A DNA stretch of 63,082 nucleotides, filler included, from Candidatus Woesearchaeota archaeon (GTDB lineage Archaea > Nanobdellota > Nanobdellia > Woesearchaeales > B72-G16), in NCBI GenBank assembly GCA_003650545.1. It is 17 parts of 17 records of this genome, joined end to end, with 100 filler letters (N's around TTAATTAATTAA, not from the genome) between each part and the next. Parts side by side here need not be neighbours in the genome. Positions count along the whole stretch, not along the records: positions 1 to 3,784 come from QMQO01000088.1; 16 more parts are not named here. One strand, 5' to 3'. Both the position numbers and the translations under genes were made by a program. The notes below the pieces were generated by a model. The model worked only from the letters and a program-made list of their open reading frames with translations. It was not told where the DNA came from and searched no databases. Every line of letters starts with the position of its first letter. The stretch's first letter is position 1. Positions 1 to 17,429 of this stretch are shown here, in pieces.

Positions 1-162
1 AGCTTTACTTCCAAGTCTCTTATCAACTTTAATGGCCTTGCTCATCACTAAAGGAAAACACAAACCTGCTTTAAACACTTTTTCGAAATTCAGCACTCCA
101 CGCAACTAGTAGGCAGATAGTACATACCATGAAATGTCGAGCTAATAAGTTGTTTAGGGAAA

Positions 163-209
163 TGGCGGGCCCGGCGGGACTCGAACCCGCGGCCCCCGGC
201 TTAGAAGGC
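163..209 (-). mobile_element. 3' fragment of an archaeal tRNA-Arg(TCT), interpreted as an integration att site
   Basis: Minus strand reads GC-CTTCTAA-GCCGG-GGGCC-GCGGG-TTCGAGT-CCCGC-CGGGCCC-GCCA (anticodon loop, T-arm, acceptor strand, CCA). The 5' half is absent and replaced by AT-rich sequence. Confidence 0.85.
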
Positions 210-382
210 TTGAAATTTATATACTAACGTTTCAGTAATTCATGATAAACTGAAACACTTCATCACACCATATTATCCTAAATGATCATCAAAATTGCAG
301 AATGAAACATTAGTAGAGAATGATGTTAATTTTTATAATCAAATTAATTGGCGAGTGTTTATAACTTCATTATTATGTTTGA

Positions 383-574
383 TTGGATGATCTAAAGAGC
401 ATTATATACAACCCATATGAGCCTAATAAGAATACTATGAGAAAAGTAATAGACGCATTGCAAGGAAGAGCCATACCAAGAGAATACAAAATACTTAGAA
501 AATACTACCTAGCATTCGCAATAAAAGAAAATATATACAACCAAGAAAAAGCCACTTATTTGCGCACTTCTTAG
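383..574 (+). pseudogene. Remnant of an SSV1-type tyrosine integrase C-terminus
   Basis: VIDALQGRAIPREYKILRKYYL resembles the IDxxQGRxP...ILxxxY catalytic-tyrosine region of archaeal SSV-type integrases (recalled). It lies just after the tRNA fragment, whose reverse complement translates MAGPAGLEPAAPGLEG as in att-split integrases. Confidence 0.6.
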
Positions 575-580
575 CGTTTT

Positions 581-925
581 TCATTTTAAACTGAAATTTA
601 TCACATGTGAAACACTTAGCAGATGAGTCCAGTAGCATTTATGGAATATTAATTGGAATAGCTTTCTCTCATCATCTTTACTGATCTTACTTTCCATGAA
701 ATCAGTAATTCTCCTAAAAATCATGTATGGAATAGCACTGACAAAAAGAATGTTTCGCTGAATAGCCTTATTCTCAAAGTCATCTATCACATATCTATAG
801 AACTTTAACCATTTAACTGTTGGATCCCTAGAAACAATTACACCTAAAACTTCCATTGGCGTCGGAACCAAAGCTATATCTCTCTCAACTGCTCTAAAAG
901 TACAATTACTGCTCAACCTTAACAA
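581..925 (-). CDS. Hypothetical protein, possibly a degraded gene fragment
   Basis: 114-aa ORF with weak start context and no recognised family. Confidence 0.3.
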   Translation of the reverse strand: MLRLSSNCTFRAVERDIALVPTPMEVLGVIVSRDPTVKWLKFYRYVIDDFENKAIQRNILFVSAIPYMIFRRITDFMESKISKDDERKLFQLIFHKCYWTHLLSVSHVINFSLK

Positions 926-1559
926 AAATCAAGGTAACACATACATCCACTAAGAAGATTATTTACATAGACAAGTATTATTGGAACAACCAATGGCATG
1001 ACAATCCACCACCAAACGGACAATTCATGGGATATAAGTTGTATAAACGTGAAGTTAAGAAGTATCCAGTAAGTGGAAAAATAACAATTAAAACACCAGA
1101 ATGGGCAAATCTTGTTGAAAGCTTCAGTGAAAAAGGCGGTCCAAAACTATCAAGTAAAAGCCAGACACTAAACTTCGGACCATACTCGAAAGAGTGAAAC
1201 TATAACTTAAAGGCAAGCTCATGGCTAACTAAAAACAACATACTAGGCCAGCTAAATTATACGGCTAAAACTTTAACTGCAATATATAGCTGGAAAAACA
1301 ATTATGGTGACAGTGATTGCTACAAGTGATTGTGTAATTATTGAGCGGGCAACTAAGGTTCTTGACCTGGCTGGCCATATTATACGAAGACATTTCTCAA
1401 ATCTTATTTTAAAATAATTAAAATATATTGATTTTATAACTTAGCCTATAGTGGTCTCCTTATATAGTTTATAGTTTGATGTATAATAATATACACTATT
1501 ACTCTTTTATTTAACGAAAAATATATATTTAAAAAAATAGAAGAAAGTGGAGGAGATGG

Positions 1560-1706
1560 ATGATGGTAGCTAAGTACGAAGTAGAACCAATAGCAGAATT
1601 TTGTTTTGCATGCTTCCTATGTGAGGGTTGTCTTTCATGCGGTACTTCTCCTGCAATAATCGTTGTAGCTAATTCAACAACTGTAGCAGTGCTTTTTGGA
1701 GAGTAA
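1560..1706 (+). CDS. Cys-rich RiPP precursor peptide (thurincin H-like sactipeptide), 48 aa; missed by the ORF track
   Basis: MMVAKYEVEPIAEFCFACFLCEGCLSCGTSPAIIVVANSTTVAVLFGE; GGAGGAG RBS at 1549-1555; five Cys at i+3 spacing; stop codon lies 1 nt before the rSAM ATG. Confidence 0.85.
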   Translation: MMVAKYEVEPIAEFCFACFLCEGCLSCGTSPAIIVVANSTTVAVLFGE

Positions 1707-1707
1707 T

Positions 1708-3086
1708 ATGAAACATTATGTACAAACTTCTTCAAGAGAGAATATACTTACGAAATATCCTGTACTTTCGGATTCTATTTTGCTACACAAAGCACCCGAG
1801 GGAGCATATCTAATAGAACGACCACGTATAAACGAATCATCAACTAGATCTTCCATGAGATACGCATTAATAAATCAAGATGCTCTTAATCTACTTCTTT
1901 TATGCAATGGAACACGAACAGTCAAGGAAATTTTGGAAATTTTGTCAAAAAATGAGCAAGAGTTTAAAGGTAATTTAATTTTTATTTTAAAAGCATTGAA
2001 TTTTAACCATATTTATCTGCTGGACTCTCCATTGGCTAGAGGCAAAGATTTTTCAAGTATTATTAAAGGAAGTTACAAGTACACTATTCCTTTACATCTA
2101 GTCATTGAATTAACTTATAAATGCAATTTTAGGTGTAAACATTGTTATGCTTTTTCCTCATTTAATTACAGTGAAGAAATTAAAACAGATGCATTATTAT
2201 TCATTCTTAAAAAATATGCTAAAGCTGGTTCTAGAATTGTTGAATTAACGGGGGGAGAGCCTCTTCTGCATAGTAATTTCCTTGACATCCTTGAGTTTTG
2301 TTGTAAAAACTTTCTCATAGTAAGTGTAATTACTAATGGTTATTATATTGATAGAAATTTAGTCAAAATATGTCAGAAGTATAGAGATGTTATTAGCTTT
2401 AGCATAACTCTATTTAGCGATTCTTCCGATTATCATGACTATTTTACTGGAGTTTCTGGCTCTTTTGACAGAGCTGTGAATAGTATAAAAATGTTAGCAG
2501 ATGCTAAAATAAGAGTGAGAGTTTCAACGTGTATTACACCTCAGAATTATACTAAAATTGAAAATGTTATTGAACTTGCAAAAAAATAGGTGCTTCGTCC
2601 TTTGCTTACTCTCCGATATTACCCTTTGGAAGAGCTTCAAGAAGCTATAATACTCTTAAACTCTCATCTAATCAAGTAAAAATGCTTATGAGAAAAGTAA
2701 AAAAGCTACGGCGTAAATTTAGAGGATTTATACAAATAATTCCTGAACATATTGTTGAAAGTTTCATTAATATTGGATGTGGTGCAGGGCGAAAATCTAT
2801 AGTTATCAATCCTAAAGGTGAAGTAAGACCTTGCATAATGCTACCTTCCACTTATTTATATATGGGCAATATTTTTCGTGATTCTTTAGAGAATATTATG
2901 TTAATATTTAATGACCTACATCTTACATTTCCTAATAAAGATGTCTGCAAAAAATGTTCTCATTTAGCGTTTTGTTTAGGGTGTATTGCCAGAGGGATTA
3001 AAATGTGGGAGTCATTGAAAGATGAGTGTACTTGGGGTTGTAAAATGAATTTACGTGCAAAAATATTTGGTGATTCTAATGGGTGA
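1708..3086 (+). CDS. PqqD/RRE + radical SAM + SPASM peptide maturase, interrupted by a -1 frameshift at an A7 run (2580-2586)
   Basis: RRE-like INQDALNLLLLCNGTRTVKEIL; CNFRCKHC; ELTGGEPLLH. The -1 frame continues IGASSFAYSPILPFGRA with no stop into the SPASM region CGAGRKSIVINPKGEVRPC...CKKCSHLAFCLGC (ORFs 1696-2589 and 2682-3086). Confidence 0.9.
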
Positions 3087-3784
3087 TTATATTGTTATAT
3101 TTGATAGTGTATCGAAGTTTTATCATAGCAGGCTTGGTGTTAATGATATTTCATTTAGAGTGAATTGTGGTGAAATTGTAGGCTGTATTGGTCCAAACGG
3201 TGCTGGTAAAACTACTATTTCTAAGTTGATGGCTGGATTACTTAAGCCTACTAGAGGGATAGTGAAAGTTTTTGGTGAAAATCCATTTAATAATGTTAAT
3301 ATTAAGTTTAGAATTGGTTTACTATTGGATTTTGATGGTATGTATGATGAACTCACAGTATATGATAATCTTCTTTTTCTTAGTAGAGCTTATAACTTGG
3401 ATGCTGGAAGATCGAAGTTGAAGGATTTACTTAGACAGGTTGGTTTAGAAGATGAATTGGATACTATTGTTGGTAAACTTTCTAAGGGTATGCGGAGAAG
3501 ACTTTCTCTTGTTGGAGCTTTAATTCATGATCCTGAGCTTCTAATTCTTGATGAACCTCTTGTTTTCTTGGATTTAACTTGGCAGGAAAGAATTAAGCGT
3601 TTAATTAGATCTTTGAGGGATGAAGGGAAGACTATTTTTATAACATCTAATGATTTGATGTTAGTTGATGATTTAGCTGAGAAAATTATATTGCTAGATA
3701 AGGGTAGGCTTGTTATTCAAGGTGTTAAGAGTGAGATTAAAGAGATGCTTTCTAGAGGTGTTGTTAAGGTTACATTTTTTGATG
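3079..3784 (+). CDS. ABC transporter ATP-binding protein (export/immunity type), truncated at contig end
   Basis: Walker A GPNGAGKT, signature LSKGMRRR, Walker B LILDEP; GGTGA RBS before ATG 3079; overlaps the rSAM stop. Confidence 0.93.
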
Positions 3785-6824: not shown

Positions 6825-7298
6825 TTAGGTTATCCATACGTCTATATGGAAGGTTCCAGCATGCTCTGTAACGTCACTGCTTATCGTCATTACTATTTTG
6901 ATGGTGAATTTCATGGTTTGCGGGCTGTTAATCTCGTAAGATGTGGTTGGGTTGGATGGTGTGAGCTTTGCGACTTCCACGTTTGAATCATCCAGTATGA
7001 CGATTTCTAGGTTCTGGAAATCTGAAGGTTCTGTTACGTTTAGTCTGAAGTTGATTGTGACTTTTCCAGTCTTATAGGCGGTTACTTTCAAGATGTTCTC
7101 ATAGACTTTAGCGTATGTTTCTCCAGCCATCAAAGTTCCCAAATCATACGGGTTACCGTTCCATGATGCGGTTCCGATCGGTTTAACGGTATAATTAAAT
7201 GTTGCAGTATAGATTTGGATTGCTCTATCAATCGCTATTGTTACAAGGAGACAGAGGGAGATCAGTATGAGGATTTTCAGTATTGCTTTTCGGTTCAT
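6825..7298 (-). CDS. Membrane-anchored beta-sandwich protein, hypothetical
   Basis: 157-aa ORF with an N-terminal hydrophobic helix and alternating beta pattern. Confidence 0.55.
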   Translation of the reverse strand: MNRKAILKILILISLCLLVTIAIDRAIQIYTATFNYTVKPIGTASWNGNPYDLGTLMAGETYAKVYENILKVTAYKTGKVTINFRLNVTEPSDFQNLEIVILDDSNVEVAKLTPSNPTTSYEINSPQTMKFTIKIVMTISSDVTEHAGTFHIDVWIT

Positions 7299-7385
7299 GT
7301 CTAAAAAATTGAAAATAGGTGATTTTTAAAGCTAACTCACTAAAAAATGGATATTTGCCGAGCTTTTCTGTATAGAGTTTTAGGG

Positions 7386-7613
7386 TTATTTCCGCAATTC
7401 CCTAAGCCTTAAAGCTAGCCTTGCCCTTTGACCGATCTTCCCAGGTTTCTTAGCGTCTTCACGCATAATGCTAACCTTTATGGTTCCCCTCTCCGTGAAT
7501 CCCTTTTCTCCATATCTTCGATAGACGCTTCGCCTATAGGCTCCTGGTTTCTTGATTGCTTTTTGAATCCAGTATTTTTTGCTTCTTCTTGTTCTCCTTC
7601 TTCCCCTACTCAT
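7386..7613 (-). CDS. Small basic DNA-binding virion protein, SSV1 VP2-like
   Basis: WIQKAIKKPGAYRRSVYRRYGEKGFTERGTIK...LALRLRELRK closely follows SSV1 VP2 as recalled (WVQKAIKRPGRVHRYLMRLYGKRAFTKDGDIK...LAKRLKRM); AAGGAG RBS. Confidence 0.75.
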   Translation of the reverse strand: MSRGRRRTRRSKKYWIQKAIKKPGAYRRSVYRRYGEKGFTERGTIKVSIMREDAKKPGKIGQRARLALRLRELRK

Positions 7614-7759
7614 CTACATTAACTCCTTTTTATTTTTTCCTATAAACAACCCTATAAGCNNNNNNNNNNNNNNNNNNNNNNNNNNNNNNNNNNNNNNNNN
7701 NNNTTAATTAATTAANNNNNNNNNNNNNNNNNNNNNNNNNNNNNNNNNNNNNNNNNNNN

Positions 7760-10700
7760 CCGAGGGGTACCATGACATATATATTCACATAGACAGAGCT
7801 GACAAAATAACCGAAGACAACGAAAACAACAATAAATTTTACAATACCGTCGCCGTTAGTTCGGCTCCCGACGCTATTAATGACCTCGCAGGCTCGGCGA
7901 CAAGCGCAATGGAGATAGATTTAAATTGGCATGCCACCGGGGATGACGGATATACGGGAGATTTGAATAATTCAACTTTTACTATTCAATATACTTCAGT
8001 CACTGCCTGGGCCCAGAGTGAAATCAATTGGAGCACAGATACAACCGGCGTTCCTTCTTATGTTTACACGGTTGACATAGCTACCACAGGAGTAGCGGCT
8101 CAAAGTCAGCGTTTTTATAGACAAGAGAATTTGTTGGCTAATACCACTTATTATTTTAGAATATGGACTCATGACGATTTTATTTCTTACAGCGCCCTTT
8201 CAAACGGAGCCACCGTTTCCACTCTGGCAGAGCCTGTAATTAGCACGCAGGTTTATAACGTCTTTTACACAAGTGTCACTCTTAATTGGGCGGCTTTGCC
8301 TCTTTCTCCGCCCTCTTCCACTTGCGAGGGATATAAAATTCAGGCTTCAACCGCGCCGGATTTTACGGGAATATTTTATTCTTCTTCAACCCTGGACGTA
8401 AAATTAAGCACCTTAACAATCAGGGGACTTACGGTAAGCACCACGTATTATTTCAGAGTAGGCAGCTTGAATTGGACAGAAGAACCTAATTATATTTTAT
8501 CCGGAAGCACCTGCACAATGTCGCCTGTGCCCGACACGCCGCCGATTGAGCCTTATGTCTCTAATGTGCACAAATCAAACATAACTGTAGATTGGACGGC
8601 AAACAACCCGGACAATGGCTATATTTTGCAAGCTTCGACGGCTTCCGATTTTACCGGAACCGTATCTTCTTCTCAAACCGCTGATGGTACAGCCACAAGT
8701 TTGACTGTTTCTGAACCAGCTTTGCACACCAACACTATTTATTACTTAAGAGCGGGTGCTATATGGGGCTCAACCACCTGGTATGCGCAGACCTTATCCA
8801 GTTCGACGTTAGCTGAATCTGTTGCTTCAGTTCAATTTGAGGAAGTTTTTATAACGAGTATTTCCGTTTCATGGCCAGTTTTGCCGCAAACGCCGTCTTC
8901 TTCAACTTGTGAGGGTTATCGTTTAGATGCTTCAACCTCTTCTGACTTTTACGGCACAATCTTCTCAAGTTCAACTCCCTCTGTGAATGTGGCCACTCTT
9001 ACCGTTACCGGGTTATCTCCTAATACCACTTATTATTTCAGGATAGGCACCCTTAACTGGAATTCAGTTGCTAATTATTTATTGGCGGGTTCCACGTCAA
9101 CTTTAGCTAACCTTCCCGGTCAAGAATCTCCGTGGCTTATCTCAAATTCAAGCTGTTCAATCACCGCTCAGTGGACGGCGGGGGACCCTGAAAATCCAGG
9201 CGGCACAAACTATATCCTTGAAGCATCTTCAACCAATTTTTCCGGCGGAACCATTCTTTCTTCAGCAACTTTCAATCTTCAGGCGGAGGTTTTGGGATTG
9301 ATGTCCAATACCACTTATTATTTGAGAACTATTGCAGTTAATTGGCAGGATATTAAGACTTACGGGCAGGTAATGGGTTCGACTTCCACTTTGACCAAAC
9401 TGGTCGAAGATGCTCAGTTCTATCGAGTTAATATTACCAGCGTGACAGTAAACTGGAAAGAATTTCTAACCAGTCCGTCTTCTTCAACTTGCTCGGGATA
9501 TATTGTTCAAGCTTCCACCGCAAGTGACTTTTCTGGTGAAATATTTTCTTCTTCCACGCTAAATGGCGTAACACCTTCAACTCTTACCGTTAAAAACCTT
9601 TATTCGGAAACCACATATTATTTCCGGGTCGGAGCGTATAACTGGAATTTTGTTCCAAACTATTTTGCGATGGGTTCCACCAAAACCAAAGTTGCTGTTC
9701 CGCCTCCTGATTTATCCATTAACAATTGGGATATAACTTTCAACCCGACGGAAGCCGATTTTGGCTGGAATGTGGATATTTCAGCCGATGTGCGAAATCT
9801 TAGCAATGACTTTATGGAGGAGTTGACGGAAAAGCAGGAAACCGGAGCCACCGGTTTTTTAATACAGTCAAATCAATATTTAGCTCAAGGATTTGTGGTT
9901 TCAGAAGACCTTAGTATTTTATCTGTGGAAATGTGGTGTTATGATTATGGAAGTACGGGAGATATGACAACCATTACTATAACGACAGGCACAACCGATA
10001 TTCCAAGCACAGGCGCAGAAATAATAGCCTCCACTAAAAACACGGTATCAACCGAGTATGAATGGGTTAAATTCAAATTCAATGGCCCTGTTCGTCTTCC
10101 GGTTCTTCCAGCTGGCGATGCTTATTGGATAATTGCCAAAAATTCGGAAAGCCCCAGTAATGGCTGGGTTTGGAAGGCCCAGGAAAACACTAATCCTTAT
10201 ACGCCAGCGTCCTCTGCCTTCAACGATGGCGAAGGAACATCATGGAACAATGGTGGGAACGACGATCAAATGTTCAGGGTTTATCAGAGCAGTAATATAG
10301 TGGTTTCATTTTACGATGGCGATCCAGACGATGGCGGAACCTTGATAGGCGTTTCAACCATAGCCGCTCTCAATACGAACCAGACGGAAACGGCGGTTTT
10401 AAGTTGGACGGCCACTTCTCCGGAAGCCAACCGGGATATTTACGCCTATATTGACAGGGCCAACGATATAGGGGAAAGCGATGAAACGAATAATAAAGCG
10501 TATAACACAATAGCGATAAGTTCAGCTCCCGATACTGTCAGTGATTTTTTTGCTTCGACTAACAGCACAACGGATATAGACCTTGAGTGGACTGTTACCG
10601 GAGACGACGGATACACCGGAGATTTAAATAACGCCGAATTCATAATTCAATACACATCCAGTTTACCCTGGGCCGAGGGTAATTCATGGGATCCAGAAAG

Positions 10701-11397
10701 CAAAAACGAATCTTATGTTTACCGGGTTAGTATAACAACGACTGGAGTAACGGCTCAAAGTCAGCGTTTTTATACTCAGACAGGACTTGGTATAAATACT
10801 ACTTATTATTTCAGGATGTGGATTAAAGACGATTTCGGCAGATACAGCGGGCTTTCAAATGGCGCTACCGTCTGCACTTTAGCCGCCATTCCCCAATCTC
10901 CAGCGGAACCTTTCGACGGAGTTTATTTTTCTTCAGTCGCCGTTTCATGGCTTGCCAACGGCAACCCGTCTTATACCGAATATCAATTGCAGGCTTCCAC
11001 CGCCTCTGATTTTACGGGAACTTTATATGGACCTTATGCGGGGCCGGACGGCTGGTTTACCGGAGTTTCAACTGATGCGATTTCATTATTAGGTTGCACA
11101 ACTTTTTACTTTCAAGTTCAGGCAAGAAATGAAGGAGGAATAGAAACGGGGTTTCAGTCACTTGGGAGTACCAAGACCCTTGTCTACTTTGACTGCGGCC
11201 TGAGAGTTTATGATGGAACGCAAATTGTAAACATTGCCTGTCAGCCAACTTATTGCACAGGTGATTCCATATCACCGTTGAGAATGCATAAGGATGGTGA
11301 AAACCTGGCCATAGGACTCGTGGACGTAGCCGACCCTAAAGCTTCCAAAATACGAATTCAAACCCCCGCAGGTATTAAGTCCTGTCGCCAACAATAA
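7760..11397 (+). CDS. Large surface protein with multiple fibronectin type III repeats and CARDB-like domains, 5'-truncated
   Basis: Repeated LxxNTTYYFRV and QASTASDFTG units; CARDB-like IDRANDIGESDETNN; frame open from the contig start. Confidence 0.85.
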
Positions 11398-11440
11398 TTA
11401 TAACCCCAATAACCCCGCAATAAGGGATGAAGGATAAGTT

Positions 11441-11529
11441 AGGAGTCAGGAGTCGAGAGTCAGGAGTCGAGAGTCAGGAGTCGAGAGTCAGGAGTCGAGA
11501 GTCAGGAGTCGAGAGTCAGGAGTCGAGAG
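11441..11529 (+). repeat. Tandem repeat of alternating heptamers AGGAGTC/GAGAGTC (14-nt unit, about 6 copies), running to the contig end
   Basis: Directly visible in the sequence. Confidence 0.95.
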
Positions 11530-11629
11530 NNNNNNNNNNNNNNNNNNNNNNNNNNNNNNNNNNNNNNNNNNNNTTAATTAATTAANNNNNNNNNNNNNNN
11601 NNNNNNNNNNNNNNNNNNNNNNNNNNNNN

Positions 11630-14600
11630 ACCGGCTCCGGGATAGATGTAAATTGCCCCTCCTTCTGCGCCTCCTCCGTCGCCGCCGTTTGTTCCGGGAT
11701 CGTCACCGTCACGTGCAGGAACAATACCCCAGTGGCTGTTCTGGAAAGTCAGCCCATTTATTATCGTACCGCTATCGGTATCAGGGCCGAGTTCAAGTAT
11801 CGGCCCCGGATATTCAGAGCCATCGAGAACCGTCGCTGCAACCCAGTTGGGGTCATCGGGATATTTGGACCTGATTGTAATTGACTTATTTAACATATAA
11901 CCAAAACTTTGACCATGTCCGGGTAAAATCCAGTTGCCGGTATCTACAACAACAACATCGCCATCCTGAGCGTAATAAATAGCCTCCTGAATAGTATGGT
12001 AATCACCATCGGGGCCGACTTCCAAAATGGCGGCCTGTTCGAATTCAACGCCTATATGTTTATCGGTCAAATTAACGACAACAGTGTTTGTTGTGGCGGT
12101 TGAAGAATCGTCGTCGGTACCGTGCCATGCCCTGACCCTCCATCCGGAACGCGGCATTGCTTTAAATGTAACTACCGTACCAGCGTAATAGCGTCCGCTG
12201 CCGTTGGGGGGCGTGATGATATCGACATAGCCATCACCACCATATACCTGGGCCGTTACCTCAAAATCAGCAAGAGTCTCGACATCGGGATAATGATAGC
12301 CGATATCCACGATAGTGCCGCCGTCGAGCACATTATCGATATCAGTTGTATAATCGCCCATATTGGTGGCGGGTGTAACCAAAATGGTGTCGGCAACAGC
12401 ACTTCCACCATCGATAGCGGGATTTTGGCCGGCATCCTGATTAAGGTAGTAATCGCCAAGGGTACCGCCTGTCACAAATAACTGCAGTTCATCCTCCTGT
12501 GTTCTGCCTATATTCAAGTCCACATCCGTTTCACTTACGCCATCAATCTGGGTGTCATTATAATCAACGGGTGAGCCTGAGTCGTCGAAACCATAGAAGG
12601 CACCGTGAGGATTATTGTTGAACAGACTATATGTTACATCCGTTCCGGTGTCTCTGCTTTCATATACGGCGTACTTATAGCATTTGTCGAATATACAGTC
12701 TTTTATGCTGGCCGAGGATTCCCAGTCGCAATATATTCCGCCGCCGAAGACATCGGCCCAGCTCTTGGTGAATGTGCTGTTGGTAATATCAGCATTAACA
12801 CTGGAATAAACAGCTATCGCACCGCCGTTACCTTTTGACAAATTGTCCGCGAACAGGCAATTAACAATCGATGGAGAGGTATTGCTTGACAAATAGACAG
12901 CACCGCCGGCGCCACCAGCGCTGGTAGCACTGTTTTCACAGAAGACATAATTTGTTATGCTGCCTGATACGGTTACGCAGTACAATCCTCCTCCGTCGCC
13001 ATTGACCGCAGTTGCGGTATTGTTTTTGACATCCCCTACATCCATATCCAAAGAGCCATCAACGAGGGACATTCCACCGCCGTGTTCTGCGGTGTTGTTC
13101 AATATATAACAATCGAAAATTTCAGCACCAAAATTCTTAAGATAAACAGCACCGCCGATAGCGGAACTATTGGTAACAAAGCTGCAGTTGTAAATTTGCT
13201 GATTTAATTCGGTATTATCATCCAGATATGAACTTACAGCGCCTCCATAGCCGGCCGTGGTGTTTGCGCTGAATGAACAGTAATCAAGCATTACATCACT
13301 CTTGCAGTTCAAGCCGCCGCCGCCTTCTCCTAAGTTACCGGAGCTGTCACAGTTATTTGCGCTGAACTCACACTCCACAAAGTTTACATCCACACAGTCA
13401 GGACCTACATACATTCCACCTCCGTTCAAAGTGGACGTATTGCGCATGAAAGAGCAATCAAAAACATCGACACCATCAACATCGGATACGACGTAAACAC
13501 CGCCGCCGAGGTTGTCGGTGAAATCACAGTTCCATATACGTACATCTTCGCTGTCGACTTCCACGTGGATACCGCCGCCCTGATAATAGGTTTCAAAGTC
13601 CTTGTATATACTTTCATAAAGGTCTATCGGTAAGTAACCCCAATATTCGTCGTATGCCTCATTGCCGTTGAAAGTACTGTCAACAACATAGGGTTCGCAC
13701 CACTCACCGTAGTATATTGCCCCGCCGGCACCTGTACCGAAACCAAATCCAATGGATCCATCAGTAGAGCGTGGAGTATTGGGGTCGCCACTTCCAATCT
13801 TACCTCCGAGACCACCGACACCTCCCGTAACAATATTATTAATAAACTGACAGTCGTTTATATCCGGGTTAGCATTCCTGTGGAAATATACAGCCGCACC
13901 ATAGCCGTAACCAATACCGAATCCCCCGTTTCCACCACTGCTTTCAACTCCGTTTCCGGGCCCTGGACTGCCACCGTCACCGCCCGAACCACCGATACCA
14001 CCGCTTGCCCTGTTGTCTTGAAAGGTGCAGCTTATAAGAGTCGGGCTGCACCCAGTATCACAATAAATAGCACCGCCGTAGCCATCGCCGTATCCGGACC
14101 CCCCGGCGCCGCCATTAATACCGTCACCGTCTGTATTTATACCGCCGTTAACTCCGTGTCCGCCGTATCCGCCTGTGACAGTGCAATTACGGAACACGCA
14201 GTTTTTAATAGTCGGACTGCTGTCATTGTCAATAAATACTGCACCGCCGAATCCGTCTCCAAAAGCATCCTGACCGTCGGGGTCAACCACTCCGTTCGGG
14301 TCAATAAAATTACCACCATAGGCGCCTGCAATAAAACCATTGGTTATTGTCAGGCCGTCAAGTACGGAATTTCCGTCCTCGCCGCTTGTGAAAATAAAAC
14401 CACGATGGTTGATTCTTTCTGTGCCGGCGCAGTTAATAACAGTCGCGGCCACCTTTGCCGGGTCATGCGGGTCCTCGCCTCTTATAGTGATTGCTTTGCC
14501 CTCGAAATCTATGTCGACATTATTCGGGCCCGCATATGTACCGGGTTTGATGATAATAGTATCTTTGTCATAAGCCGCTTTTATAGCCGGAACAATGGTC

Positions 14601-15397
14601 TGAAAATCACCTTGATCACCGACAATAATGCTCGTCGGAGCATGATAGAAAAATTCCACGGTAACCTTCGTATCGGCATACATAGTGACAGTGTTACGTG
14701 TACTTGTGGTTGAATCATTATCTGTACCTGTCCACTGGCTGACGAGGTAGTTCTCATCCGGAACCGCTCTTAAATTTACCTGCGTACCCGGATTGATTGC
14801 AGCCGTGTTGGGATCCCACATGTTCATATCGACGCCATAGACATTCCAATCTGCATAAAGACGTCCGTTTGTGCCGGAGCCGGAGTTGACCACCTCAATC
14901 TCAAGCTGATACTGCAGCACAGGAGCCACTCGATAATGATAACCCATATCAACGTTACCTGAATCGGCAACATGGTCAGTGCGTGTGGTTGGCTCAAAAC
15001 CTACAATCGAGGCAAGCGCCGAAGCTGAGCCAAAACCAGTATCTACACAGGGATTTGGCGGATTTGCCAATACCTGTCCAGCGGCAACCTGGCTAAGATA
15101 ATAAGTCTGCCCAAGTTGATTGGCCGATACAAACAACGGGTTGGCGTCAATAACGCTGCCTGGAAACGGCAGATAAAGCCATGGCCCTGTAAACGGGTCA
15201 AGTGCAGGGCCTATGAAAACATCATCTTCACCGCCTTGAATATCGCTGTAATAGAGCATTACCGTGGAGGTTGGATTATTTGTCTCATACGGGTCACCTA
15301 TTGCTATCTGAGGTCCATTTCCGGCGTAATTACCCCATAAAATACTGTTTAGTATCTCGACGAAAGCATCATAACAACTCACCCCACCACCACTTCC
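11630..15397 (-). CDS. Large right-handed parallel beta-helix repeat surface protein (Pmp-like GGAI/FxxN repeats, InlB-B-like repeats), truncated at both ends
   Basis: Many GGAIY/GGGMY and CxFxxN motifs; duplicated WxGTDxDSSTxTxNTV and TIQEAI/TIVPAI domains. Confidence 0.85.
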
Positions 15398-15497
15398 NNN
15401 NNNNNNNNNNNNNNNNNNNNNNNNNNNNNNNNNNNNNNNNNTTAATTAATTAANNNNNNNNNNNNNNNNNNNNNNNNNNNNNNNNNNNNNNNNNNNN

Positions 15498-17429
15498 AAT
15501 ATTAGAATCAGATACAACAAAATATGCAGATGTATCAGAAAGAACGCCATATGATATTCCATACAGATCATCTATATTGTCTCTAAATATAGAAACGCCT
15601 TTACCCCAATCTGTAGATATCTCATAATAATTCCTGCACTTAACATAAAGATAATGAACTGAGTCAGAATACAACCTAATACTAACAGTATCCCACAAAG
15701 CAGCAGTTTTATATAACTCACTCTCTATTGTATCACCATTATCATTTATATATCTATGAATAGTAGAATCATATATAGAATATTCGACTGGATACTGAGA
15801 AGAAATATTTAATCCTTCATTTATAGTAATCAAAGCAGAAGTATCTGTATTACCAATAAAATTAACATAAGCAGAAGAAGCTGCTAATGTCATAGTATCA
15901 GAAAGAATACCATAAACAGATGTTAATGAATCAGATCTTCTACTAAGAGCCTTGGCTCTAAACATATACTTAGTATTAGGAGATAAACCAGAAATAGTTA
16001 CAGTATCATAATCATATATAGTATAATAAATCGGACTTGCTAAAGAATCTCCATTTTTATTAATATAACAATGTCTAGAGCTATCCCTCACAACTACCTT
16101 TGTGCTATCTTTATTATTAAAAACACTATTTATAGTTATCTTCAAACTCGTAGAATCAACATATACAATAGAAACAGTATCAGGATAGTCTGGAATAGTA
16201 TATATTAAAGTTGTATCATCTGACATACTTCTTACAGAATCAGAGTTAGATACAAAACCTATAAACCAATATGCACTATCAGGAGACAATCCATCCACTA
16301 TAACACTATCCCACGCTGATCTAGTATCCCACGCTGTATCCCCTTGAGATAAAGTATCTCCACTGATATTAATAAATCTTGAGAAATTTAAAAAATAAAT
16401 AGCATAATCAACTGAAGTAGGATTATCATCTGACGGAAATCTTAATCCTATTTCCGAGCTACTAACTGTAGTATTATTAAGAACTGATGGCTTCTGAGCA
16501 AATGTTCTAAAAACAACTAATGGAGATGCAGTTGTATCTCCAGAAGGAAAAAATGATACCCATATAACTGTATCCATATAGTCTGGACTTAGCTCATATA
16601 AAGTATCATAAAAAGTTTGAGAAGCCTCAGTAGGAGATGTATTAACAGAAAAAATAAATGCATCAGATTTATAGCTATAGATCTTAACAGAATCAATGTC
16701 ATAAAAATTACTATCACTGGCTTCAAGCGCTACAGATGAATCAGAAAGAACAGTAGCAGAGACATTATAGGGAGCATAATGAGTAGGAGTATAATATATA
16801 TCAAGCCTAGGTCTTCTCTCAGGAACTGTATTATAGTTATCAGAATAAAAAACAGCTCCAGTAGCATTATTATTACCAGATTTTGCAACTATAACAAATC
16901 CATTATTGGTAGAATCTCCAGTATATATATCATTAGTAAGAGTAGTAACATCAAAGTATATCCATGAGTCATCATCATCAATATTAATATCAGTAATTGT
17001 ATCTCCCTTATCAGTATATACTCCATTAATACCACCAATACTATCCCAAACTATTGTTTTTTCATTTGCAAGCCGATATTTAGACCTATATATAAATATT
17101 GTATCAATTGTATCATTAACTCCAATATTGTATAAATATAAACTTAATTTAGCAGAATCTATAGTAGATCCGTATGGAATAGCTGATATACTATCCCATA
17201 GACTATAAATCCATAAAGTATCAGATGAAGATACTTTAAGAAACAAATCAGTAATCTGAGACCCACCAGAAGTATCATAATTAGTAGTGCTATTAGCAGA
17301 ACTTATATAAACTGATACTCCAGTTGAATCTGGTTGCCAGGATTTAGTAGCCTGAGAAAACAATAATTCGCTTTCACCAAGAACTAAAAATAAAAATAAT
17401 ACAATTGATACCTTATACATAGAATACAT
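15498..17429 (-). CDS. Secreted DNRLRE-like + Fn3-repeat protein in phage context, truncated
   Basis: Signal peptide; IPYGSTIDSAKLSLY...WIYFDVT...NNGFVI...FYS...RRPRLDIYY pattern; Fn3-like GLSPNTKYMFRAKA. Confidence 0.65.

Follow-up and report, generated by a model that had tools for sequence, protein, structure and literature searches.

The window analysed here is a stretch of 63,082 nucleotides in which 17 MAG contigs are joined, and the locus described below occupies one of them, positions 1-3784 (C88), which ends inside the gene for an ABC transporter ATPase. The plus strand of this contig encodes, at 1560..1706, a 48-residue precursor peptide comprised of a leader of about 14 residues, a core with Cys at positions 15, 18, 21, 24 and 27, and a 21-residue tail following the Cys ladder that is rich in Ala, Val, Ile, Ser and Thr, with Gly also represented in the predicted acceptor half. 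A GGAGG ribosome-binding site (1549..1553, +) lies 6 nt ahead of the ATG at 1560 and is kept in a second Culexmicrobium copy of the locus (L013), and an AT-rich, TATA-like stretch (1520-1539) precedes it. An earlier note on this DNA had described the five-Cys ORF and its strong ribosome-binding site just as they are found; it had also taken the ORF to be unannotated, but public gene calls exist, albeit nameless (P0124-P0127 in NCBI nr, JGI and ENA). The five-Cys ladder occurs a single time across the six frames of the 63-kb window, and thus the pattern did not arise by chance. The precursor matches no Pfam, NCBIfam or PHROGs family and no curated model, and the Atlas gave nothing usable.

The precursor gene is tightly joined to the genes that follow. 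Its TAA stop (1704-1706) is separated by a single nucleotide from the ATG at 1708 of a gene for a radical SAM-SPASM maturase with a putative RRE (1708..3086, +; 459 residues when intact), with GGAGAG at 1698-1703 just ahead of this start, and the TGA stop of the maturase gene (3084-3086) overlaps the next coding sequence, whose ATG stands at 3079 (ATGGGTGA) behind a GGTGA at 3069-3073. The proposed translational coupling of precursor, maturase and transporter genes is therefore borne out by a 1-nt gap followed by an overlapping stop and start. The third gene (3079..3784, +) encodes the first 235 of 302 residues of an ABC transporter ATP-binding protein before the contig ends (PF00005, 1.2e-28); the full 302-residue ATPase matches the DrrA-type model TIGR01188 at 4.2e-56. 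Beyond the window, at L012:12226-12960, lies an ABC-2 permease gene (ABC2_membrane_4, PF12730, 8e-08), and the order maturase-ATPase-permease recurs on a Bacillus cereus plasmid. The sactipeptide-like arrangement of precursor, RRE-radical SAM-SPASM enzyme and ABC protein is supported by this gene coupling together with Pfam matches to Radical_SAM, SPASM and ABC_tran.

In the window, the maturase gene is split into two pieces (1708-2589 and 2589-3086), since one T is missing after position 2586 and a false stop arises at 2587-2589. The extra T is present in a 199-kb contig that matches the locus and in the contigs of all three sequencing runs that cover the site (X1, X2 and X3), of which X1 is possibly the source of the same DNA and X2 and X3 come from other studies; a further run, X4, has no cover there. 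The frameshift is an assembly artefact, and the enzyme gene, which had been thought to need frame repair, is intact. A programmed -1 frameshift, or slippage, within the A7 run that precedes the stop (2580-2589) was also considered and is ruled out by the extra T in the 199-kb contig and in X1-X3. Indeed, a database protein (P0121) corresponds to the intact 459-residue maturase at 100% identity, and the two pieces align collinearly to the AlbA profile (positions 1-271 and 279-432 of 442).

The window bin is a Woesearchaeota MAG, but this genome is not the host of the operon. The contig at 1-3784 is 99.97% identical to the 199-kb contig, on which the FEN-1 gene product bears the name Ca. Culexmicrobium cathedralense; judged by this match, the contig is foreign to its Woesearchaeota bin and belongs to a Culexmicrobium (class Culexarchaeia). 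Besides FEN-1, the 199-kb contig encodes the PolD small subunit, a Trm5/TYW2 protein and a tRNA with an intron, and so the operon is placed on an archaeal chromosome; the claim of an archaeal rather than a Bacillota origin holds, for a different archaeon. The low-GC composition of the island that bears the operon explains its placement in the wrong archaeon's bin. The practical lesson is that composition-driven mis-binning of a low-GC island can combine with a one-base assembly error that passes for a pseudogene. For the uncultured Culexmicrobium lineage, a growth optimum of approximately 91 °C is predicted (Table 1, PMC9723716); the main text of that paper, apart from supplements that may list the cluster, makes no mention of radical SAM, bacteriocin or secondary metabolite.

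The operon is carried on a low-GC island of 4.5 kb whose borders are 48-bp repeats of tRNA-Arg(UCU). In the Culexmicrobium locus that holds the whole island (L012), a perfect 48-nt repeat stands at 8455-8502 and 13009-13056, and the GC fraction is 0.316 within the island against 0.434 and 0.419 outside, so that both direct repeats of the tRNA 3' part at the two ends and a compositional break, the hallmarks of a tRNA-integrated island, are present. The right copy forms part of a whole tRNA (L012:13013-13115, minus strand; Rfam RF00005, 47.3 bits). The left, attL-like copy lies within the window at 162..209 (-) and comprises the 48-nt 3' half of tRNA-Arg(UCU), including CCA, a perfect repeat of that in L012. 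Of the CCA-encoding tRNA proposed for this contig, the CCA is there, but only within this 3' half: ARAGORN reported none in either the window or L012, the whole gene was found by Rfam in L012 only, and the RNA search of the window gave only an 18-nt tmRNA-like T-arm match. Outside the island, positions 1..105 (-) hold the first 35 codons of a Trm5/TYW2-type tRNA methyltransferase gene, a chromosomal flank that is 100% identical to the start of a 372-residue ORF in L012 (7280-8398; PF02475, 7.2e-52).

A 63-residue ORF at 383..574 (+) probably preserves the C-terminal end of a tyrosine integrase from the archaeal SSV family, a link that is transitive: the ORF matches L190:8153-8464 (35% identity over 60 residues, pairwise E 7e-10), which itself scores 28 bits with PF16795, "Archaeal phage integrase", whose cutoff is 27. 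The integrase remnant named in the earlier note is thus retained through L190, while the window ORF has no direct match to PF16795 and none to any Pfam (even at E 10), NCBIfam or PHROGs family; an intact integrase is absent from the island, which bears this weak C-terminal remnant only. A 114-residue ORF on the left side of the island (581..925, -) has no Pfam, NCBIfam or PHROGs family and Atlas matches all below 0.9. Riding with the operon is a 3' gene remnant of the DUF434/DUF5616 kind, 37 codons long (1304..1417, +), which aligns to the end of a 219-residue gene at L013:743-1402 (PF18481, 2.3e-46; PF04256, 4.9e-20); the remnant is 89% identical to this L013 gene, with which the host's full copy (G096:C4:48103-48744) shares 68% identity. 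The island is seated at a Culexmicrobium tRNA-Arg(UCU) gene; its horizontal acquisition is one part of the joint explanation given below, with the same slight lean in its favour.

An integrase cut down to a remnant, the DUF5616 fragment riding along and the stop in the enzyme gene of the window contig could together be read as signs that the locus is cargo decaying on a defunct mobile element, in which the small ORF or the enzyme would be non-functional. This reading is highly improbable, as neither the 199-kb contig nor the contigs of any of the three covering runs have the stop, and in two species-level copies every frame remains open and most changes are synonymous. The maturase gene differs between the two Culexmicrobium copies by 33 synonymous versus 15 non-synonymous codon changes. 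The precursor ORF differs between the island and L013 at 5 nt, making 4 synonymous and 1 non-synonymous codons and no indel; the 256 nt directly upstream of the ORF, which include the 1304-1417 remnant, are 87% identical with 24 gap positions between the same two copies.

The predicted domain order of the maturase is that of RiPP-modifying radical SAM enzymes. The radical SAM core is recognized at 1.4e-23 (PF04055), with a CxxxCxxC motif formed by C139, C143 and C146 that is invariant in 15 sequences, and the SPASM domain by PF13186 (8.9e-08) and TIGR04085, with C358, C376, C414, C417, C423, C426 and C441 conserved in the 15 homologues. Of the two profiles suggested as a check, SPASM was thus recovered, but PqqD (PF05402) was not; a putative RRE region is instead suggested by the AlbA and SkfB profiles, which align from residues 17 and 24, respectively, and by full-length fold matches to SuiB and CteB, and homologues P0003-P0005 carry PF05402. 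An AF2 model of the maturase (pLDDT 84.3, pTM 0.84) presents N-terminal strands at residues 17-55 followed by three helices at 57-98. Among NCBIfam profiles, the sactisynthase AlbA scores best over the whole protein (201.9 bits, profile positions 1-432 of 442), ahead of GeoRSP (137.3), SkfB (133.4), PapB (93.3) and StsB (93.2 bits), and AlbA is again the top profile for each half alone. The closest solved relative by sequence is SkfB (6efn, E 5.7e-30), which also leads the Foldseek matches (E 1.3e-23, target TM 0.79, 26% identity), followed by the RiPP maturases SuiB and CteB. The best profile and the best fold both belong to sactisynthases, which speaks against a grouping with non-RiPP SPASM proteins. 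The scores lie far below the curated cutoffs throughout, at 201.9 versus 850 bits for the AlbA equivalog (NF012164), 133.4 versus 300 for the SkfB equivalog (TIGR04403), 36 versus 425 for TIGR03974 (SPASM half) and 93.3 versus 340 for PapB (NF047865), the latter two being SCIFF/ranthipeptide maturase models, and function is therefore not transferable by family membership.

Pairing of the maturase with the precursor receives weak support from structure prediction. The predicted complex scored 0.51 against 0.01 for the best of three controls, above a mark that was passed by 116 out of 157 complexes with solved structures and by 2 out of 215 mismatched pairs, and within a range (up to 0.60) that holds only 18 of those 157 along with both passing mismatches. 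The runs had at least 47% of contacts in common and a partner pLDDT of at least 41, with author-made alignments, and the pass may reflect memory of solved complexes (e.g. SuiB-SuiA, 5v1t).

Relatives of the enzyme lie beside peptides of the same type. At the best 3 of 80 GTDB loci (L014 from Brevefilum, L015 from Dysgonomonadaceae and L016 from Bacteroidales), a co-oriented Cys-ladder ORF stands upstream of the enzyme gene, with 4, 5 and 5 Cys residues, respectively, spaced at i+3 ahead of a small/hydrophobic tail; homologous loci keep the Cys-rich peptide to this extent. Among the other loci of the set, one more ladder segment was seen, at L082, 3.6 kb off the enzyme. A profile of five peptides retrieved 5 clusters at E≤1e-3 among 1,835,955,588 representatives, all of the Cys-ladder type, and four Cys and two Ala residues are invariant in the five aligned peptides (two near-identical from Culexmicrobium and three bacterial). 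The closest archaeal enzyme homologues (P0002-P0009), under Methanobacterium and Methanobrevibacter names, are 31-35% identical, and no peptide from these homologues is among the matches of the precursor profile. Weak enzyme matches only, at 25-33% identity, were found in 6 of 40 other genomes of the same order as G000; 40 genomes neighbouring a Methanococci genome, searched with a relative of the maturase as query, gave none at 1e-30, which is uninformative. Bacillota plasmids were considered as carriers of the same family and rejected, their enzymes being 25-29% identical and their precursors of other types. No viral contig is close among 100 confirmed relatives, of which 80 were retained. 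One locus of the viral set (L098) matches best over the RRE region, with 32% identity across residues 17-206.

These features are best explained by a working four-gene operon for a ribosomal, cross-linked peptide on an acquired 4.5-kb tRNA-Arg(UCU) island of Culexmicrobium, whose likeliest product would be a nested multi-thioether (sactipeptide-type) hairpin, an account that we place a little on the favourable side of even. In this scheme, the N-terminal RRE domain of the enzyme would bind the 48-residue precursor through its short leader, the radical SAM site would cleave SAM and take a hydrogen atom off a residue located in the C-terminal core half, and a Cys thiol held at the SPASM auxiliary cluster would close the thioether. 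Up to five such rounds would yield a nested hairpin, most likely through bonds from sulfur to the alpha-carbon (sactionine), as in thurincin H. The leader would presumably be removed thereafter, and family searches of the island genes revealed no leader peptidase gene; the ABC-2 ATPase/permease pair may serve in product export and/or producer protection. By its sequence features, the locus is thus a credible candidate for the source of an antimicrobial peptide that an archaeon would make and whose general type is already known.

The same operon might instead link its Cys residues to side-chain beta- or gamma-carbons and so produce a ranthipeptide, as do CteB, PapB and the archaeal CrpC. The SPASM half of the enzyme scores 36 bits with the SCIFF maturase profile (TIGR03974) and 32.4 bits with that of PapB, CteB is among the top folds, and closeness among such enzymes does not predict regiochemistry. 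Against this, AlbA and SkfB score above the PapB, StsB and SCIFF maturases, both for the entire protein and for either half, and the acceptor half is rich in Ala, Val, Ile, Gly, Ser and Thr, with no conserved Asp/Asn motif in the five peptides, where known ranthipeptides use Asp/Asn motifs. CrpC, the one characterized archaeal enzyme of this architecture found, does install ranthionine (as described in the part of PMC13692751 that concerns it), and the ranthipeptide reading is regarded as unlikely yet deserving of weight. Less probable still is another radical SAM chemistry (epimerization, C-C cross-links or Cys oxidation), or a Cys-rich metal- or iron-sulfur-binding peptide free of sulfur cross-links. 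Such outcomes are suggested by RRE-radical SAM-SPASM enzymes of near-equal fold score that make Lys-Trp links (SuiB) or epimerize (EpeE), and by a family that has no curated model; the four Cys and two Ala that alone are invariant point to Cys as the reacting groups, and the best profile and best fold are both thioether synthases.

If the sactipeptide-type reading is extended, the peptide could be the archaeal founder of a RiPP family that spans two domains and has no curated model (Culexmicrobium, Bacteroidales and Anaerolineae; 5 clusters in 1.84 billion representatives) with up to five thioethers, one above thurincin H, as a hyper-cross-linked hairpin from a host with a predicted growth optimum near 90 °C, its operon moving between Culexmicrobium species as cargo of the 4.5-kb tRNA-Arg island; this fuller proposal is tentative and falls somewhat short of an even chance. 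Archaeal sactipeptide and ranthipeptide clusters have already been predicted in print (in the consulted portions of PMC12144867 and of the preprint 10.64898/2026.07.27.741052), and the Angew. Chem. survey, supplements apart, which may list the cluster, counts just two archaeal lanthipeptides validated earlier (PMC12144867). A literature search found no experimentally characterized archaeal sactipeptide and no paper pairing sactipeptide with CxxCxxC, and CrpC was the sole characterized archaeal thioether enzyme that it returned (PMC13692751, in the text available). With four genes, a 48-residue substrate and an intact enzyme sequence, the locus makes a compact test case; a five-thioether hairpin from a host with a predicted optimum of approximately 91 °C would, if true, be of interest for peptide stability and bear on the archaeal use of bacterial-style peptide weapons.

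Among known systems, the locus resembles that of thurincin H and its maturase ThnB. In thurincin H, Cys4, 7, 10 and 13 are linked to Ser28, Thr25, Thr22 and Asn19, respectively, and, to the extent described in the pertinent part of PMC8172795, both systems share Cys donors strictly at i+3 in the N-terminal half of the core with an acceptor half of similar length, a short leader (a 40-residue thurincin H precursor gives a 31-residue product), one radical SAM maturase, ThnB requiring its PqqD-like domain, and ABC transporter genes in the cluster. The likeness is one of pattern (Cys spacing) alone, drawn apart from the ThnA and ThnB sequences, and no named ThnB is among the 120 enzyme homologues listed. 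Unlike thurincin H, the locus has five Cys rather than four, a more hydrophobic tail and an archaeal host, and it lacks a ThnP-type protease, a regulator and triplication of the precursor gene. Carried over to the 48-residue peptide, a thurincin-like pairing would be C27-I33, C24-V36, C21-S39, C18-V42 and C15-L45, an extrapolation of low confidence. In the peptide from Brevefilum, the innermost acceptor of such a register would be a Pro, and the register is therefore not transferable.

Other thioether systems share parts of the design. SCIFF with CteB, and PapB, similarly combine a short Cys-rich precursor with an RRE-radical SAM-SPASM enzyme and thioether formation, predicted in the locus, but they differ in Cys spacing and tail, and the locus maturase falls far under their profile cutoffs. 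CrpC and CrpA of Methanococcus voltae likewise comprise an archaeal RRE-radical SAM-SPASM enzyme and an adjacent Cys-rich substrate, which differs in being a large protein with ranthionine links, a comparison made by description rather than sequence (PMC13692751, in the part describing them). SkfB has the same order of RRE, radical SAM and auxiliary-cluster domains as is predicted for the maturase, but installs a single Cys-Met link and has an auxiliary cluster reported as [2Fe-2S] (in the relevant part of PMC8172795), whereas the locus maturase keeps a seven-Cys SPASM. Subtilosin A is made with three Cys and a head-to-tail cyclization by AlbE/F, which are missing at the locus; its sactisynthase AlbA (NF012164) is nonetheless the top curated profile for the maturase from end to end, and precursor, radical SAM enzyme and ABC ATPase are arranged similarly in the minimal sboA-albA-albC clusters that have been proposed for Thermococcus (10.64898/2026.07.27.741052, in the portion that sets them out).

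The whole finding falls within the first contig, C88 of the Woesearchaeota MAG G000 (window 1-3784); the window's 17 short contigs of 3.3-3.8 kb range in GC from 0.33 to 0.49 and are joined by runs of N and TTAATTAATTAA linkers. The precursor gene at 1560-1706 encodes the 48-aa peptide quoted in an earlier note, with Cys at residues 15, 18, 21, 24 and 27, and GGAGG stands 6 nt 5' of its start codon. As read from the sequence, 1 nt separates its stop from the ATG of the radical SAM-SPASM maturase (rSAM) gene, whose stop is overlapped by 8 nt by an ABC ATPase gene beginning at the ATG at 3079, after GGTGA, in agreement with the coupling claimed for these genes. A pattern scan across six frames finds the five-Cys ladder once in the 63-kb window. 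The rest of G000 has it in a few places, mainly on C119 (outside the window; 2.8 kb, 43% GC, same bin), where a long ORF consists almost entirely of CxxC repeats and yields dozens of overlapping ladders.

In C88, the rSAM gene is split over two frames joining at 2587-2589. Joined as ...AKKLGASS..., the two pieces make up P0121, a public intact maturase of 459 aa encoded on L012, a 199,170-bp JGI contig of Ca. Culexmicrobium cathedralense. C88 is 99.974% identical to L012 8294-12078, with one gap as the sole difference, and a T is inserted behind 2586 at full depth in the Logan contigs of sequencing runs X1, X2 and X3 (81.5/81.5, 24.8/24.8 and 6.53/6.53, respectively), X4 having no cover there; the C88 DNA may come from X1, and X2 and X3 are from other studies. 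The extra T in L012 and these contigs implies an intact rSAM gene in the population, and the frameshift in C88 is evidently an artefact.

On L012 the four-gene operon is complete, comprising the precursor (9853-9999), the rSAM (10001-11380), the 302-aa ABC ATPase (11373-12281) and an ABC-2 permease (12226-12960; PF12730). A perfect direct repeat of 48 nt lies at 8455-8502 and 13009-13056, and GC drops from 0.41-0.46 outside to 0.29-0.35 exactly between the two copies. At the right end the repeat forms the 3' half of a complete tRNA gene (L012:13013-13115, minus strand; Rfam, 47.3 bits) whose anticodon reads as UCU (Arg) in the Rfam alignment. Between its D arm and anticodon arm, a non-canonical position, this gene carries an insert read as a perfect 8-bp hairpin of about 28 nt (39 letters against 6 model positions in the Rfam alignment), and ARAGORN misses the gene because of this insert ahead of the anticodon arm. 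The island is flanked by archaeal housekeeping genes, namely Trm5/TYW2 (Pfam) and FEN-1 (NCBI name), with PolD small subunit, ThiL and PIMT read from translations; matches to G000 proteins back the PolD and PIMT readings.

G000 is a 1.64-Mb MAG of 133 contigs (completeness 85%, contamination 3.9%), and the L012 flanks of the C88-matched stretch (8.3 kb and 9.3 kb) are without any match in it. The PolD small subunit and PIMT that G000 itself encodes share only 36% and 43% identity with the L012 counterparts, and the best named relatives of the former are from Woesearchaeota/Nanoarchaeota, at 49-57% identity. The L012 FEN-1 is letter-identical to an NCBI protein of 'archaeon GB-1867-005 / Candidatus Culexmicrobium cathedralense', and C88 matches L012 perfectly over 161 nt beyond the island, which hold the start of the Trm5/TYW2 gene. 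These two identities mark C88 as a Culexmicrobium fragment in a Woesearchaeota bin, so that the binning check proposed earlier leads to an archaeon. Culexarchaeia are a class of the TACK superphylum, and GB-1867-005 is described with a GC of 42.2% and an optimum predicted at 91 C (PMC9723716). The tetranucleotide correlation of C88 with the large bin contigs, 0.924, is the best among 64 contigs below 5 kb; C88 resembles the AT-rich bin because GC is 0.316 in the island and 0.43 and 0.42 in the sequence on either side, and it was apparently misbinned owing to this mimicry of bin composition.

A second copy of the operon lies on L013, a 2,906-bp contig; its DNA identity is 94.5%, its precursor carries the change I11T, and its rSAM bears the name 'Ca. 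Culexmicrobium profundum / archaeon GB-1867-035'. There the operon is preceded by the C-terminus of an aminoacyl-tRNA synthetase and a whole DUF434/DUF5616 gene. Window 1304-1417 is a 3' remnant, 37 codons long, of such a gene; it shares 89% identity with the L013 copy, to which the full gene of the host, 12 kb off, is 68% identical. The island GC of 32% is near the 35.0% given for GB-1867-035 (PMC9723716), and the nearer remnant and the GC together suggest a profundum-like genome as the origin of the cargo. A search of 62 genomes of the class around a Methanosuratincola handle finds the enzyme at E<=1e-35 only in the cathedralense genome (G096, 100%) and the profundum bin (G098, 96%). The latter holds two DUF434/DUF5616 genes (C241:743-1399 and C24:252-905; 100% and 85% identical to the query), fitting its reported redundancy of 7.8%, and the assignment of L013 to this bin is therefore not secure.

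The SSV-type integrase remnant claimed earlier finds no direct model match, as no island ORF matched an integrase model in searches of the Pfam, NCBIfam and PHROGs family collections. At another G096 island, L190, a 104-aa ORF narrowly passes PF16795 'Archaeal phage integrase' (28 bits, cutoff 27) and shares 35% identity with ORF 383-574 (pairwise E 7e-10); this transitive likeness weakly and indirectly suggests a remnant. SSV-type integrases have their att site inside the int gene, and window 196-297 (the repeat end and island start) may reflect such a layout, as it matches the 3' end of the 104-aa ORF at 75% identity. L190 (G096:C2:452000-468000) holds a low-GC (0.31-0.39), tRNA-adjacent island at about 6900-16000, with a 331-aa HTH and integrase-like ORF, the PF16795 ORF, a DNA methylase and a 1041-aa helicase; at the 3' end of its integrase ORF is a stretch that resembles the end of the repeat of the RiPP island.

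The profile search suggested for the frame-corrected rSAM returned Radical_SAM, Fer4_12 and the anticipated SPASM from Pfam, and AlbA as the top NCBIfam profile (201.9 bits, cutoff 850; profile 1-432 of 442), followed by GeoRSP (137.3, cutoff 400), SkfB (133.4, cutoff 300), PapB (93.3, cutoff 340) and StsB (93.2, cutoff 625); all these scores lie below their cutoffs, and the enzyme belongs to no curated family. Sequence matches in the PDB are to SkfB (5.7e-30), PqqE (2.7e-14) and CteB (6.3e-11). An AF2 model from 15 sequences (pLDDT 84.3, pTM 0.84) begins with strands at 17-55 and helices at 57-98, an RRE-like layout, and is ranked by Foldseek nearest to SkfB, then SuiB (about 460 aligned columns) and CteB. 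With Cys 139, 143 and 146, and 358, 376, 414, 417, 423, 426 and 441, invariant or nearly so, this evidence identifies an rSAM-SPASM RiPP maturase with a probable RRE, nearest the sactisynthases. Beyond the two Culexmicrobium copies, identity among homologues falls to about 35%.

The best three of 80 GTDB loci by score, from Brevefilum (L014), Dysgonomonadaceae (L015) and Bacteroidales (L016), each have an upstream co-oriented ORF with 4, 5 and 5 C-terminal Cys at i+3 spacing, respectively, followed by a small/hydrophobic tail. Elsewhere in the 80 loci, scanned over the retrieved flanks for stop-free segments of 25-200 aa, a Cys ladder occurs only in L082, far from the enzyme. In the alignment of the five peptides, four Cys are invariant and 'CxAC' is conserved, and a profile of these peptides recovers 5 clusters at E<=1e-3 from 1.84 billion representatives: the archaeal one, that of Brevefilum, and three of long-leader peptides of the Dysgonomonadaceae/Bacteroidales-locus type. 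No family peptide matches NCBIfam, nor do the three scanned against Pfam (window, L014, L015). Leaders are about 30-80 aa in the bacteria, compared to about 14 aa in the archaeon. At L015:3135-5236 and L016:1468-3644, precursors of ~120 aa have a conserved leader of ~80 aa, and an ORF of 112-118 aa, without a Pfam family and read from translation as a membrane protein, separates precursor and rSAM; a downstream ORF of L015 reads as an ECF-type sigma factor, and the L016 rSAM comprises two ORFs. On the Bacillus thuringiensis plasmid pHS18-3 (L191:3013-3682), five tandem ORFs of 30-37 aa, each with a conserved ...SASCACG... motif at its end, precede genes for an rSAM, a separate PqqD protein and an S24/S26 peptidase; they resemble a multi-copy array of RiPP precursors from another family.

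Prediction of the enzyme-precursor complex scored 0.51 (best control 0.01) and passes the mark that 116/157 solved complexes and 2/215 mismatches reach; of those that reach it with scores <=0.60, there are just 18 solved complexes and the two mismatches. The runs share at least 47% of contacts, with a partner pLDDT of at least 41. As like complexes are already solved, the prediction shows likeness at most, and hints weakly at binding.

Most economically, the operon would comprise genes for a thioether-forming RiPP and an ABC-2 pump for export or immunity; the island holds no leader protease gene. The favoured prediction is a nested hairpin with sactionine links like that of thurincin H, whose crosslink positions are documented (PMC8172795), because the Cys donors are evenly spaced, many residues of the acceptor half lack reactive side chains, and the enzyme is near AlbA and SkfB. 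The same three features leave the attacked carbon unfixed, and ranthionine links instead of sactionine are a live rival to this hairpin. Among the papers searched, none deals with this precursor family or with Culexarchaeia RiPPs. The operon is real, coherent and testable, and unsurprising to a RiPP genome miner: archaeal sacti/ranthipeptide clusters are predicted in bulk (PMC12144867), subtilosin-like clusters are proposed for Thermococcus (preprint 10.64898/2026.07.27.741052), and an archaeal ranthionine-forming enzyme is characterised (PMC13692751).
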